From the NCBI RefSeq assembly GCF_056746865.1, contig NZ_CM163382.1: a stretch of 64,000 nucleotides of DNA. One strand, written 5' to 3'. The notes beneath the pieces are model-generated. The model had not been told where the DNA came from. It made no database searches and saw nothing but the letters and a program-made list of their open reading frames with translations. Shown piece after piece: positions 2,361 to 27,296 of the stretch (position 1 is the first letter of the stretch; each line of letters starts with the position of its first letter). A program made the position numbers and the translations under genes.

Positions 2361-5713
<3,353 letters not shown>

Positions 5714-20665: not shown

Positions 20666-22557
<1,892 letters not shown>

Positions 22558-22644
22558 ATTCACCCCGAATGTTGTTATGTCTGTTTGCAGTGTAGAGCCA
22601 TTGTTTGTAAACACAAAAACAACTCCGCTACATCTTATTCTTAT

Positions 22645-23196
22645 TTAATATATATCAGAAGCAGGCAGGCTGGAGGATTTCTGCACAAGTCCGGTACAGG
22701 TTTGGCGCTGATAGTGTTGATACTTCCGTAATGCGATGCGGTAATTGTTGGTGCTGGTGGTGGGCAGCCACGGGGCGAGGATTTCATCAAGGAAACCGTC
22801 CTGCAGCTGATCGAGGGAAATATTTTGCTCGTGTAGATGATTACCCAAACGGCGCAGACGAACGACATATTCACGCACCGTACCTGGGCTCATTTCAGTT
22901 TGCTCAAAAAGAAATTGCTTAAAGCCGATAATATCGAAAAAATCACTCTGCGTTTTGCAGTGTAAATCACCGCAAAATCGGCACAATGCCGCCCATGACT
23001 GTTGTTCCACTTGCCAGCCATTTTCATCAAGCAGCGTGTCCAGGCGGGTAATCTCGATTTTATTCACTATTTTGCCGTCGCGAACTAAGGTAATGCGATC
23101 GAGTAATTTACGGCAATGCGCGCAATGGGTCTGGCTGTGTTTAAAGTCTTTAAGATAGCGGCTTAATGGCCGTCTTTTCAGGTGCTGCACCATCAT
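22645..23196 (-). CDS. fliZ: Flagellar regulatory protein FliZ
   Basis: ORF 22645-23232; start trimmed to MMVQHLKRRPLSRYLKDFKHSQTHCAHCRKLL (183 aa). Confidence 0.9.
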   Translation of the reverse strand: MMVQHLKRRPLSRYLKDFKHSQTHCAHCRKLLDRITLVRDGKIVNKIEITRLDTLLDENGWQVEQQSWAALCRFCGDLHCKTQSDFFDIIGFKQFLFEQTEMSPGTVREYVVRLRRLGNHLHEQNISLDQLQDGFLDEILAPWLPTTSTNNYRIALRKYQHYQRQTCTGLVQKSSSLPASDIY

Positions 23197-23241
23197 TAAG
23201 AACTCCTGGTAGTCAAAGTTAAAATGCGGCATTTACTGACG

Positions 23242-23961
23242 TTATAACTTACCCAGTTTAGTGCGTAACCGTTTAATGGCCTGGCTGTGTAACTGACTGA
23301 CCCGCGATTCCCCGACCTCCAGCACTGCACCAATCTCTTTGAGATTCAGCTCTTCCTGGTAATAGAGGGTTAATACCAGTTTTTCGCGCTCCGGCAACAT
23401 TTCGATGGCTTCCATCACCCGCTGGCGCAGATTACTGTCCAGCAGTTGTTGTAGCGGGTTTTCTCGCTGATGATCATCAGTAACCAGTTCGATGCTATCG
23501 CCGTGCTCTTCGCGCCACTCATCGTAGGAGAAGAGCTGGCTGTTATTGGTGTCGAGCAACATTTGGCGATAATCGGCTATATCGATCCCTAAACGTTCCG
23601 CTACCTCAGTTTCCGTGGCGTTGCGGCCAAGTTCCTGCTCCAGTTGCCCTATTGCCTGTGCCACTTCACGCGCGTTGCGTCGCACGCTGCGCGGCACCCA
23701 GTCACGGCTGCGAAGTTCATCCAGCATAGCGCCACGGATACGCTGCACTGCGTAAGTTGTAAATGCCGTTCCTTGTAGGGCGTCATAGCGTTCGACGGCA
23801 TTAAGTAACCCAATGCCGCCCGCCTGTAGCAGATCGTCAAGTTCCACGCTCGCGGGCAGTCGAACCTGCAGGCGCAATGCTTCGTGACGCACCAGCGGGA
23901 CATAACGCTGCCACAGCGAGTGTTTATCCATTACACCTTCAGCGGTATAGAGTGAATTCAC
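23242..23961 (-). CDS. fliA: Flagellar sigma factor sigma28 (FliA)
   Basis: 239 aa ORF MNSLYTAEGVMDKHSLWQRYVPLVRHEALRL... Confidence 0.96.
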   Translation of the reverse strand: MNSLYTAEGVMDKHSLWQRYVPLVRHEALRLQVRLPASVELDDLLQAGGIGLLNAVERYDALQGTAFTTYAVQRIRGAMLDELRSRDWVPRSVRRNAREVAQAIGQLEQELGRNATETEVAERLGIDIADYRQMLLDTNNSQLFSYDEWREEHGDSIELVTDDHQRENPLQQLLDSNLRQRVMEAIEMLPEREKLVLTLYYQEELNLKEIGAVLEVGESRVSQLHSQAIKRLRTKLGKL

Positions 23962-24083
23962 GATAAACAGCCCTGCGTTATATGAGTTATCGGCATGATT
24001 ATCCGTTTCTGCAGGGTTTTTAATCGGACGATTAGTGGGTGAAATGAGGGGTTATTTGGGGGTTACCGGTAAATTTCATGCAG

Positions 24084-24106
24084 AAAAAACCCCGCCGGTG
24101 GCGGGG
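24084..24106 (-). terminator. Rho-independent terminator about 175 nt downstream of the fliC stop
   Basis: Minus strand reads gcttccccgccaccggcggggtttttt (hairpin plus U-run). Confidence 0.6.
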
Positions 24107-24138
24107 AAGCACCTTGCTGACAAATTGCGCTTTATGTT

Positions 24139-24238
24139 GCCGGATGCGGCGTAAACGCCTTATCTGGCCTACAAAAATGTGCAAATTCAATAAATTGCAA
24201 TTCAACTTGTAGGCCTGATAAGCGCAGCGCATCAGGCA
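24139..24238. repeat. Pair of inverted REP elements (BIME) in the fliC 3' region
   Basis: gccggatgcggcgtaaacgccttatctggcctac and gtaggcctgataagcgcagcgcatcaggca are classic REP palindromes in opposite orientation. Confidence 0.75.
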
Positions 24239-24280
24239 ATTTGGCGTTGCCGTCAGTCTCAGTTAATCAGGTTACAACGA

Positions 24281-25624
24281 TTAACCCTGCAGCAGAGACA
24301 GAACCTGCTGCGGTACCTGGTTAGCTTTAGACAGCACAGAGTTACCCGCCTGCTGGATGATCTGCGCTTTCGACATGTTGGACACTTCGGTCGCATAGTC
24401 GGCGTCCTGAATACGGGACTGCGCTTCAGACAGGTTGGTGGTGGTGTTATTCAGGTTGGTGACCGCAGAATCCAGACGGTTTTGTACGGCACCGAGGGAG
24501 GAGCGGAAAGTATCAACTTGCGAGATAGCTTTGTCTAAAAGTGCCAGCGGATCGTTGGTTGCAGTACCAGAAAATGTTGCTGTTGCCGCTGTTTTTACAG
24601 AACCATCAACATCGAGTTCATCGGTAAGTTGGATTTTTGTGTCTTCATTTGTTGCAGCGTCACCACCGTTTTCAATTGCATCCTTACCGTCTGCACCAGC
24701 AAGGTAATCTTTGCCTTGAATAGTAACATAGCCAACAGCCGCGCCAGCACTATTCGTCGTGACCTTGATAGGCTGACCTGTCTGTGTTGCTGTGGTAACA
24801 CCGTTCGCAGGATCAGTGAAAGTAACATTGGTGGTATTAAGCGTAACAACGCCACCAGCATTAACGGAAGCCGAATAGAAGTCATTACCAGATTGAACAA
24901 CATAGGTTCCTGTCGCTTTACCATCCGCGCTTTGTACGTTATGTAGGGACAAGCCTGATGTATCACTTATTCCCAATGTTTTAGCCATTGCGGCAGCAGC
25001 GGTATCGTTCGCACCAAATTTAACCGTAACCGGGGCATCGCCAGCATTAGCACCAGGAACTGTAGTTATCGCATCGCTAACTTTTAATGCGTTCCCTGAT
25101 ACCGAGAAACCTTTCAATCCCAGCGTTGAAGAATCAATTTTCTGCAAATCGATAGAGATGGTCTGCCCGTCATTCGCGCCAACCTGAATCTTCATCGAAC
25201 CGTCTTTCGCCAGCACGTTCACGCCGTTGAACTGGGTCTGACCGGAAACGCGGTCAATTTCGTCGAGACGGGATTTGATTTCGTCCTGAATGGAGTCCAG
25301 ATCCGAATCAGAGTTAGTCCCGGTAGAAGCCTGAACCGTCAGTTCACGAATACGCTGTAAGTTGTTGTTGATTTCGGACAGCGCGCCTTCAGTGGTCTGT
25401 GCAACAGAAATACCGTCGTTGGCGTTACGTGCAGCCTGAGTCAGGCCTTTAATGTTAGAAGTAAAACGGTTAGCAATCGCCTGACCTGCGGCGTCATCCT
25501 TCGCGCTGTTAATACGCAAGCCAGAAGACAGACGCTCGATAGAACTCGACAGCGCAGACTGGTTCTTGTTGATATTATTTTGAGTGATCAGCGAGAGGCT
25601 GTTGGTATTAATGACTTGTGCCAT
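24281..25624 (-). CDS. fliC: Flagellin, non-K-12 H-antigen allele (447 aa)
   Basis: Conserved N-terminus MAQVINTNSLSLITQNNINKNQSALSSSIERLSSGLRINSAKDDAAGQAIANRF and C-terminus ...QVPQQVLSLLQG; central region differs from the 498 aa K-12 flagellin. Confidence 0.95.
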   Translation of the reverse strand: MAQVINTNSLSLITQNNINKNQSALSSSIERLSSGLRINSAKDDAAGQAIANRFTSNIKGLTQAARNANDGISVAQTTEGALSEINNNLQRIRELTVQASTGTNSDSDLDSIQDEIKSRLDEIDRVSGQTQFNGVNVLAKDGSMKIQVGANDGQTISIDLQKIDSSTLGLKGFSVSGNALKVSDAITTVPGANAGDAPVTVKFGANDTAAAAMAKTLGISDTSGLSLHNVQSADGKATGTYVVQSGNDFYSASVNAGGVVTLNTTNVTFTDPANGVTTATQTGQPIKVTTNSAGAAVGYVTIQGKDYLAGADGKDAIENGGDAATNEDTKIQLTDELDVDGSVKTAATATFSGTATNDPLALLDKAISQVDTFRSSLGAVQNRLDSAVTNLNNTTTNLSEAQSRIQDADYATEVSNMSKAQIIQQAGNSVLSKANQVPQQVLSLLQG

Positions 25625-25700
25625 GATTCGTTATCCTATATTGCAAGTCGTTGATTACGTATTGGGTTTCCACCCGTCGGCTCAATCGCCGTCAACCCTG

Positions 25701-25727
25701 TTATCGTCTGTCGTAAAACAACCTTTA
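25701..25727 (-). promoter_or_regulatory. sigma28 class 3 promoter of fliC
   Basis: Minus strand reads TAAAGGTT, 11 nt spacer, GACGATAA. Confidence 0.75.
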
Positions 25728-25819
25728 GAATTTTTTTCACAAACAGCCATTTTTTGTTAGTCGCCGAAATACTCTTTTCTCTGCCCCTTATTCCCGCTAT
25801 TAAAAAAAACAATTAAACG

Positions 25820-25846
25820 TAAACTTTGCGCAATTCAGGCCGATAA
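25820..25846 (+). promoter_or_regulatory. sigma28 promoter of fliDST
   Basis: TAAACTTT, 11 nt spacer, GCCGATAA, about 45 nt upstream of the fliD start. Confidence 0.75.
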
Positions 25847-25889
25847 CCCCGGTATTCGTTTTACGTGTCGAAAGATAAAAGGAAATCGC

Positions 25890-27296
25890 ATGGCAAGTAT
25901 TTCATCGCTGGGAGTCGGGTCAGGTCTGGATTTAAGTTCAATCCTTGATAGCCTCACCGCCGCGCAAAAAGCGACGCTAACCCCTATTTCAAATCAGCAA
26001 TCGTCGTTTACCGCTAAACTTAGCGCCTACGGTACGCTGAAAAGCGCGCTGACGACTTTCCAGACCGCCAATACTGCATTGTCTAAAGCCGATCTTTTTT
26101 CCGCCACCAGCACTACCAGCAGCACCACCGCGTTCAGTGCCACCACCGCGGGTAACGCCATCGCCGGGAAATACACCATCAGTGTCACCCATCTGGCGCA
26201 GGCGCAAACCCTGACCACGCGCACCACCAGAGACGATACGAAAACGGCGATCGCCACCAGCGACAGTAAACTCACCATTCAACAAGGCGGCGACAAAGAT
26301 CCGATTACCATTGATATCAGCGCGGCTAACTCGTCGTTAAGCGGGATCCGTGATGCCATCAACAATGCAAAAGCAGGCGTAAGCGCAAGCATCATTAACG
26401 TGGGTAACGGTGAATATCGTCTGTCAGTCACATCAAATGACACCGGCCTTGATAATGCGATGACACTCTCGGTCAGCGGTGATGATGCGCTACAAAGTTT
26501 TATGGGCTATGACGCCAGTGCCAGCAGCAACGGTATGGAAGTCTCGGTCGCCGCCCAGAATGCGCAGCTGACGGTCAACAACGTCGCCATTGAGAACAGC
26601 AGCAACACCATCAGCGACGCGCTGGAAAACATCACCCTGAACCTGAACGATGTCACCACGGGCAACCAGACGCTAACCATCACTCAGGACACCTCCAAAG
26701 CGCAAACAGCGATTAAAGACTGGGTGAATGCTTATAACTCGCTAATAGATACCTTCAGCAGCCTGACCAAATACACCGCCGTAGATGCGGGAGCTGATAG
26801 CCAGAGTTCTAGCAATGGCGCACTGCTCGGCGACTCCACGTTGCGGACGATTCAGACGCAGTTGAAGTCGATGCTGAGTAATACCGTCAGTTCTTCCAAC
26901 TATAAAACGCTGGCGCAGATTGGTATCACGACCGATCCCAGCGATGGCAAACTGGAACTGGATGCCGACAAACTCACCGCTGCACTGAAAAAAGATGCCA
27001 GCGGCGTAGGTGCATTGATTGTTGGCGATGGTAAAAAAACCGGCATCACGACCACCATCGGCAGCAACCTGACCAGTTGGCTTTCGACAACGGGCATTAT
27101 TAAAGCCGCTACCGATGGCGTTAGTAAGACCCTGAATAAATTAACTAAAGACTACAACGCCGCCAGCGATCGCATTGATGCGCAGGTCGCGCGCTATAAA
27201 GAACAATTTACCCAACTGGACGTTTTAATGACCTCGTTAAACAGCACCAGCAGCTACTTAACGCAGCAGTTCGAAAACAACAGTAATTCCAAGTAA
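25890..27296 (+). CDS. fliD: Flagellar filament capping protein
   Basis: 468 aa ORF MASISSLGVGSGLDLSSILDSLTAAQKATLTPISNQQ... Confidence 0.95.
   Translation: MASISSLGVGSGLDLSSILDSLTAAQKATLTPISNQQSSFTAKLSAYGTLKSALTTFQTANTALSKADLFSATSTTSSTTAFSATTAGNAIAGKYTISVTHLAQAQTLTTRTTRDDTKTAIATSDSKLTIQQGGDKDPITIDISAANSSLSGIRDAINNAKAGVSASIINVGNGEYRLSVTSNDTGLDNAMTLSVSGDDALQSFMGYDASASSNGMEVSVAAQNAQLTVNNVAIENSSNTISDALENITLNLNDVTTGNQTLTITQDTSKAQTAIKDWVNAYNSLIDTFSSLTKYTAVDAGADSQSSSNGALLGDSTLRTIQTQLKSMLSNTVSSSNYKTLAQIGITTDPSDGKLELDADKLTAALKKDASGVGALIVGDGKKTGITTTIGSNLTSWLSTTGIIKAATDGVSKTLNKLTKDYNAASDRIDAQVARYKEQFTQLDVLMTSLNSTSSYLTQQFENNSNSK

Follow-up and report, generated by a model that had tools for sequence, protein, structure and literature searches.

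Melamed et al. (2023, eLife 12:RP87151, PMC10578931) described in Escherichia coli K-12 a sigma-28-dependent, Hfq-bound small RNA of about 200 nt, FliX, and its sensitivity to a 5'-phosphate-dependent exonuclease marked it as a processing product of the fliC mRNA. The RNA co-immunoprecipitates with Hfq as two bands of about 200 and about 100 nt. The smaller species, FliX-S, contains one REP sequence and turned out to be more active than full-length FliX in the K-12 assays (PMC10578931). FliX was found to base-pair inside the coding regions of fliC, rplC, rpsS and rpsQ and to reduce flagella synthesis. Its overexpression lowers the levels of flagellin and fliC mRNA as well as the number of flagella, the effect of FliX-S being the stronger one (PMC10578931). 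FliX-S gives footprints on rpsS; this binding is lost with the M1 mutation, which turns GCA into CGU (CGT in DNA) within GTCAGCAACGTG, and is regained with a compensatory change in rpsS (PMC10578931). In a K-12 strain with the chromosomal fliX-M1 allele, flagella are slightly more numerous and fliC mRNA is increased, with motility unchanged (PMC10578931).

The same authors reported two related RNAs. FlgO, derived from the flgL 3' UTR, resembles FliX in its sigma-28-dependent parental transcript, its terminator hairpin with a U-tail and its processed 5' ends, but FlgO has few targets, whereas FliX has REP sequences and pairs within coding sequences (PMC10578931). UhpU, derived from the uhpT 3' UTR, is a similar 3'-UTR-derived Hfq-binding sRNA, but one with its own internal promoter (PMC10578931). 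The RefSeq annotation of strain MG1655 lists FliX as an ncRNA gene, fliX (b4827, "small RNA FliX"), at 2001912-2002106, which is 195 nt long and starts 4 nt past the fliC stop. The second described system that bears on this locus is the dispersed REP/BIME repeat. For such elements roles at the DNA level, namely the binding of IHF or gyrase and nucleoid organisation, have been considered, and REP hairpins stabilise upstream mRNA. A REP pair separated by a linker with an IHF site is classed as BIME-1 (RIP/RIB).

The window analysed here is a stretch of 64,000 nucleotides of contig NZ_CM163382.1 (assembly GCF_056746865.1). It carries fliC on the minus strand, with the stop codon TAA at 24283-24281 in the list of open reading frames, and the product scores 637 bits for the NCBIfam FliC/FljB family flagellin, whose cut-off is 619. 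Downstream of fliC on the same strand lies fliA (23961-23242); the intergenic region is 319 nt long, and both REP palindromes fall within it. The promoter-like motif upstream of fliC agrees at 7 of 8 positions per box with the sigma-28 consensus, TAAAGTTT-N11-GCCGATAA, and would drive the parental fliC-FliX transcript. A search for the exact consensus gave zero matches, the fliC promoter differing from it at one position per box. Two open reading frames that cross the REPs and the terminator, 24032-24232 on the minus strand and 24078-24212 on the plus strand, were not taken as genes. The coordinates of the features are collected in Table 1.

Table 1. Features of the fliC 3' UTR and its parental gene in the window
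Feature	Coordinates	Strand	Basis or remark
fliC (447-aa flagellin)	24281..25624	-	parental gene of the 3' UTR; list of open reading frames and NCBIfam
Promoter-like motif for fliC, sigma-28 (class 3) type, TAAAGGTT-N11-GACGATAA	25701..25727	-	read by eye
Full-length FliX orthologue, 194 nt	24084..24277	-	aligns with MG1655 fliX b4827; primer SM044; fold z
5' arm, FliX nt 15-28, ACUGAGACUGACGG	24250..24263	-	predicted pairing with the seed region (MFE and centroid structures)
REP1, REP palindrome of putative Y type (UUGCCUGAUGCGCUGCGCUUAUCAGGCCUACAA)	24207..24239	-	inverted-repeat arms
Linker of the REP pair (BIME), AT-rich, 32 nt	24175..24206	-	Rfam ES036 match on the plus strand
FliX-S orthologue, 105 nt: REP2, seed region, terminator	24084..24188	-	5' end from primer SM673
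REP2, REP palindrome of putative Z type, carries G113A at 24165	24137..24174	-	inverted-repeat arms; partial naRNA4 match
Seed region AAUUUGUCAGCAAGGUGC, FliX nt 152-169	24109..24126	-	published M1 mutation; alignment to b4827
Intrinsic terminator, likely Hfq-binding 3' end	24084..24106	-	stem-loop 24106-24090 and U6 24089-24084

In our estimate the interval is, with a probability of about 0.9, the fliC 3' UTR that encodes the FliX orthologue of this strain. The first-pass annotation had suggested that a long structured UTR at 24084-24280 may yield a FliX-like 3'-derived sRNA; this is borne out by the near-identity to the characterised K-12 locus, and the proposed limits agree with those of the orthologue to within 3 nt. 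The segment 24277-24084, which begins 4 nt past the fliC stop and runs to the last letter of the U-tract, aligns with MG1655 fliX end to end over 195 columns with two substitutions and one T fewer. The differences are G113A in REP2, C165G at 24113 and the missing T in the tail (U6 here vs. U7 in K-12), all other positions being identical. The 339-nt intergenic stretch as a whole shows 98.2% identity to K-12-type genomes. The published primers SM044 (TTGTAACCTG...) and SM673 (GAATTTGCAC...) place the +1 of FliX at 24277 and that of FliX-S at 24188, respectively, so that the same 5' ends as in K-12 define the full-length form and a 105-nt product. The seed core UUUGUCAGCA, at 24124-24115, is identical to that of K-12. 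It includes the M1 triplet GCA (24117-24115) within GUCAGCAACGUG, the sequence mutated in M1, while the flanking position 165 is G and not C.

FliX is thus recognised here by its position, by homology over the full length, by the seed core and by the terminator with its U-tail. The order REP1-linker-REP2-seed-terminator is also that of K-12, and the length is of the same class (194 vs. 195 nt). The parental fliC does differ, since it encodes a flagellin of 447 aa in this strain vs. 498 aa, of type H48, in K-12. Given the near-identity of the RNA, sigma-28 dependence, processing, Hfq binding and target regulation would be expected in this strain as in K-12. FliX is already annotated and characterised in E. 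coli K-12, and the finding is correct, not new. An Rfam scan of the interval revealed no FliX family in that database. Its matches to ES036, naRNA4 and mir-192 were rejected as gene calls, being repeat-derived or due to chance.

Two observations concern the surroundings of the interval. Over 21800-27140 the window is identical to E. coli strain D2, a dog isolate (NZ_CP010137.1), at 5335 of 5340 positions, and the fliC genes of the two strains differ by 1 nt. The fliA upstream region, 23962-24066, adjoins the terminator directly and hardly varies between the 15 aligned E. coli loci, independently of the fliC allele; it is partially conserved in other genera, and probably holds the fliA promoters and the FlhDC site.

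The architecture of the UTR proved to be as the first-pass annotation had read it, with the first terminator about 175 nt downstream of the fliC stop and two inverted REP palindromes in between. The terminator stem starts exactly 175 nt after the stop. Both pairs of inverted-repeat arms were found. The arms 24159-24174 and 24207-24222 are complementary at 94% over 16 nt, the arms 24137-24148 and 24228-24239 at 92% over 12 nt. The inverted REP pair spans 24239-24137 of the minus strand. It consists of imperfect palindromes of about 35 nt that are multicopy per genome, as is typical of REP/BIME elements; REP-length query pieces match at a median of 13 places per E. coli genome. A further REP copy lies in the window at 63247-63281, where 35 nt show 86% identity to the REP2 described here. 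As in BIME-1, two REPs, apparently of different type, stand in inverted orientation on either side of an AT-rich linker, which is about 32 nt long and has an IHF-like motif, and copies are dispersed in the genome. What sets the fliC copy apart is that it sits in an mRNA 3' UTR and that the single-copy sequence on its flanks, about 50 nt, carries the seed. The BIME-1/RIP subtype combines Y and Z1 REPs with an IHF-binding L linker; the Y and Z1 types were assigned here by eye and are tentative.

The terminator hairpin reads CCCCGCCACCGGCGGGG, with seven G-C pairs, and is followed by TTTTTT. It is the single terminator-like site on the minus strand between 23500 and 26200; the scan as a whole found three terminator-like sites vs. 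3.4 expected from shuffles, a number not above expectation. The hairpin is kept in all 38 loci with a detected fliC-fliA terminator, which come from six genera, and at one of these loci it shows a compensatory double change (CCCTGCC..GGCAGGG).

Folding is in line with the description of the UTR as structured. The predicted energy of the 194-nt RNA is -72.1 kcal/mol vs. -53.5 +/- 4.2 kcal/mol for shuffled sequences (z = -4.44), and none of 200 shuffles was as stable. For FliX-S the corresponding values are -38.1 kcal/mol and z = -3.08. In the predicted fold of full-length FliX, REP1 and REP2 pair with each other, and the 5' arm (nt 15-28) meets nt 155-167 of the seed region. The predicted unpaired probabilities of the seed core UUGUCAG are 0.00-0.26 there. 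They rise to 0.55-0.89 for UUUGUC, the 5' half of the core, in FliX-S, whose AGCA part is predicted to be largely paired (0.05-0.34). The K-12 FliX and FliX-S give unpaired probabilities similar to those of this strain. The 5' arm is single-copy per genome and is present in long-form genomes only (see below). In the predicted structure the REPs of full-length FliX would zip into one long hairpin, placing the 5' arm on the seed, and processing to FliX-S would unmask it. Such unmasking, proposed here from a thermodynamic prediction, would explain the higher activity of FliX-S, as the seed would be freed from the 5' arm. G113A, for its part, is predicted to introduce an A-C mismatch into the own hairpin of REP2 in FliX-S and to weaken this hairpin.

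Beside the seed core, at a distance of two nucleotides 3' of the M1 triplet, this strain carries the substitution C165G. The 47-mer with G165 is rare: of 5426 complete E. coli genomes, 33 contain it. The K-12 form of this 47-mer matched 2832 genomes, 1387 of them at a coverage of at least 80%. Position 165 is T in strain PMV-1. Among the sampled long-form alleles the seed core is altered only in EC16 and ABU 83972, which have one T-to-C change in common and read UUUGCCAGC where the others read UUUGUCAGC, while the neighbouring positions vary. At the rpsS site (nt 243-267) the predicted duplex energies are -21.3 kcal/mol for K-12, -19.8 kcal/mol for this strain and -15.1 kcal/mol for M1. At rpsQ they are -19.4 and -16.2 kcal/mol for K-12 and this strain, respectively. 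The predicted cost of C165G is therefore 1.5 kcal/mol for the rpsS site and 3.2 kcal/mol for the one in rpsQ. These energies were computed in silico against K-12 target sequences, the S10 operon being outside the window. Only the compact rpsS and rpsQ sites were kept. RNAduplex runs of the long seed region over whole coding sequences were discarded, as for fliC and rplC they produced huge internal loops and were uninformative. The expected effect of C165G is a mild weakening of pairing with no loss of function.

The conservation of the interval among fliC alleles, to which the first-pass annotation had pointed as a check, holds in part: the FliX-bearing form is found in 64.5% of 5426 complete E. 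coli genomes and is absent from about 34%. A genome was counted for a form if its match extended over 80% or more of the query, and the collection leans to clinical lineages. The long form, with REP pair, seed and terminator, occurs in 3502 genomes, K-12 and O157:H7 among them. Three short forms were distinguished. S1, in which fliC ends in LLR and TAATTTACACTTATCGCTCAAA precedes the terminator, was found in 817 genomes (15.1%; e.g., O111:H8). In S2 and S3 fliC ends in LLQG, followed by TAATCGCCTGAATGCCTCTCAAA and the terminator in S2 (227 genomes, 4.2%; e.g., NMBU-W10C18) and by TAATGGCCTTAACCTGCCTGA and the terminator in S3 (785 genomes, 14.5%; e.g., O104:H4). No form was assigned to 95 genomes (1.8%). 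In all three short forms the REP pair, the 5' arm and UUUGUCAGCA are absent, and the terminator starts about 20 nt past the stop. In terms of flagellin alleles, H4 (e.g., O104:H4) corresponds to one of the short forms, and H8 (e.g., O111:H8) is also short.

To look beyond E. coli, species-representative genomes were scanned with the 21-mer AAATAACCCCTCATTTCACCC from the fliA upstream region. A short 3' UTR was found at 22 of 22 fliC-fliA loci from Citrobacter, Pseudocitrobacter, Enterobacter, Lelliottia and Buttiauxella, with both the LLR and the LLQG classes represented. These loci share with E. coli the CCCCGC-loop-GCGGGG terminator and the 21-mer. The short UTRs of other E. coli H-type alleles and of the five genera have a matching terminator, CCCCGC-loop-GCGGGG-U5-7, and a matching fliA upstream region. 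The distance from stop to terminator is 18-34 nt, usually about 20, and the REP pair, the 5' arm and the seed are missing. The scan was non-exhaustive: it listed no record of Escherichia, Shigella or Salmonella, though the 21-mer is invariant in 15 E. coli loci. Its sole long form came from a contig that resembles E. coli but belongs to a "Collinsella" MAG. This MAG, JAIJJM01 (labelled Collinsella sp.), contains two E. coli-type fliC-fliA junctions (L024 and L025), one long (FliX) and one short (S1), which suggests contamination by two E. coli strains. At four further scanned loci (L031-L033 and one other), other genes lie upstream of fliA.

The sequence specific to the long form amounts to about 150 nt, made up of the 103-nt REP pair and single-copy flanks of about 50 nt, in which the seed lies. 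With short UTRs of no more than about 20 nt to align to, the boundaries of the segment are ambiguous in pairwise alignments. Both non-REP flanks are single-copy per genome, and a search of E. coli genomes for a donor copy of them found none. The short 3' UTR looks ancestral. The simplest reading, with the closest outgroups Escherichia, Shigella and Salmonella lying outside the scan, is that the long form would be a derived state of some fliC alleles. We tentatively propose, at somewhat less than even odds, that FliX is a young regulator whose presence is tied to the fliC allele, the long-form segment occurring beside a single class of E. coli fliC alleles, and that the REP pair acts as a processing-dependent mask of the seed. 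The FliX literature that we found consists of the eLife paper (PMC10578931), its preprint and a handful of citing papers. In this set, the species alignment in the eLife supplement being outside the search, we found no paper on variation within E. coli, a REP origin of FliX, allele-tied presence or seed masking.

On the model of K-12, the following course of events would apply. fliC would be transcribed from its sigma-28 promoter up to the intrinsic terminator, and a cut just past the fliC stop codon would free the 194-nt Hfq-bound RNA. A second cut, in the AU-rich linker between the REPs, would then give the 105-nt FliX-S. The stretch from REP2 to the terminator, with UUUGUCAGCA, would base-pair inside the coding regions of fliC, rplC, rpsS and rpsQ and reduce their expression, which would damp flagella synthesis late in the flagellar programme. 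The contribution of FliX is dispensable, since about a third of E. coli genomes are without the whole element.

The interval could also be viewed as one dispersed REP/BIME copy with a role, if any, at the DNA level, the RNA being a by-product without a significant role in trans in this strain. Such an explanation would suit the multiplicity of the repeat (a median of 13 REP-piece matches per genome and another copy at 63247-63281). It would also suit the absence of the element from about 34% of E. coli and from all sampled fliC loci of other genera, as well as the subtle phenotype of fliX-M1 in K-12 (PMC10578931). In Rfam, moreover, the linker matches two families derived from repeats, ES036 and naRNA4, the latter through its 5' hairpin, which REP2 matches with 36.5 bits, below the gathering score of 59.5. 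The linker also has an IHF-like site at 24185-24197 with one mismatch to the consensus. Chance would account for this IHF-like site, however, as 63 such matches occur in the window vs. 66.6 expected, and by itself it is no evidence. The functional seed, moreover, lies outside the REPs in single-copy sequence, and its core is changed only in EC16 and ABU 83972 among the sampled long-form alleles. Finally, in K-12 the pairing with rpsS is specific, as the compensatory mutation attests, and both FliX and FliX-S have regulatory effects (PMC10578931). We therefore regard an explanation by the repeat at the DNA level as quite unlikely.

It is very unlikely that the main role of the element is in cis, with the REP hairpins and the terminator shielding the 3' end of the fliC mRNA from exonucleases or insulating fliC transcription from the adjoining fliA promoter region. 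The very stable structure (-72.1 kcal/mol) would fit such a role, as would the ability of REP hairpins to stabilise upstream mRNA and the position of the fliA regulatory region, which begins right past the terminator and hardly varies between alleles or genera. The short-form alleles, however, do with the terminator alone, and hence the REP pair is unnecessary for termination or for protection of the 3' end. A cis role would also leave unexplained how FliX-S expressed from a plasmid acts in trans in K-12 (PMC10578931). A role in cis is compatible with the sRNA role and not exclusive of it. The last alternative, an antisense sRNA of the ES036/CssrF type transcribed from the plus strand of the linker (24175-24216), appears extremely unlikely. 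The plus strand does match Rfam ES036 at 24175-24216 with 42.9 bits, above the gathering score of 37.6, but the match covers the repeated BIME linker and so reports the repeat family rather than a gene at this locus. On the plus strand no promoter-like site was found in the vicinity of 24175, a terminator-like site is likewise missing past 24216, and the sequence upstream is antisense of fliA only; ES036 (RF02751) was accordingly rejected as an independently transcribed plus-strand gene here. The reading of the interval as the FliX-encoding fliC 3' UTR is the one that we retain.

The core finding in itself matters little, as it rediscovers an annotated and characterised sRNA that the first-pass annotation had already named. 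Within the literature searched, the allele-tied presence of FliX, the short form of all sampled loci from other genera, C165G and the predicted masking of the seed appear to be new, and we give them modest weight. The predicted masking of the seed offers a testable explanation for the greater activity of FliX-S as compared to full-length FliX. The long form exemplifies how an insertion containing a REP pair may create a trans-acting sRNA in a 3' UTR. The E. coli lineages with and without FliX, together with the rare variant in the flank of the seed, provide a natural test bed for the contribution of this RNA. If the presence of FliX is indeed tied to the fliC allele, the exchange of flagellin alleles by recombination would also switch on or off the link between ribosome production and flagella synthesis.
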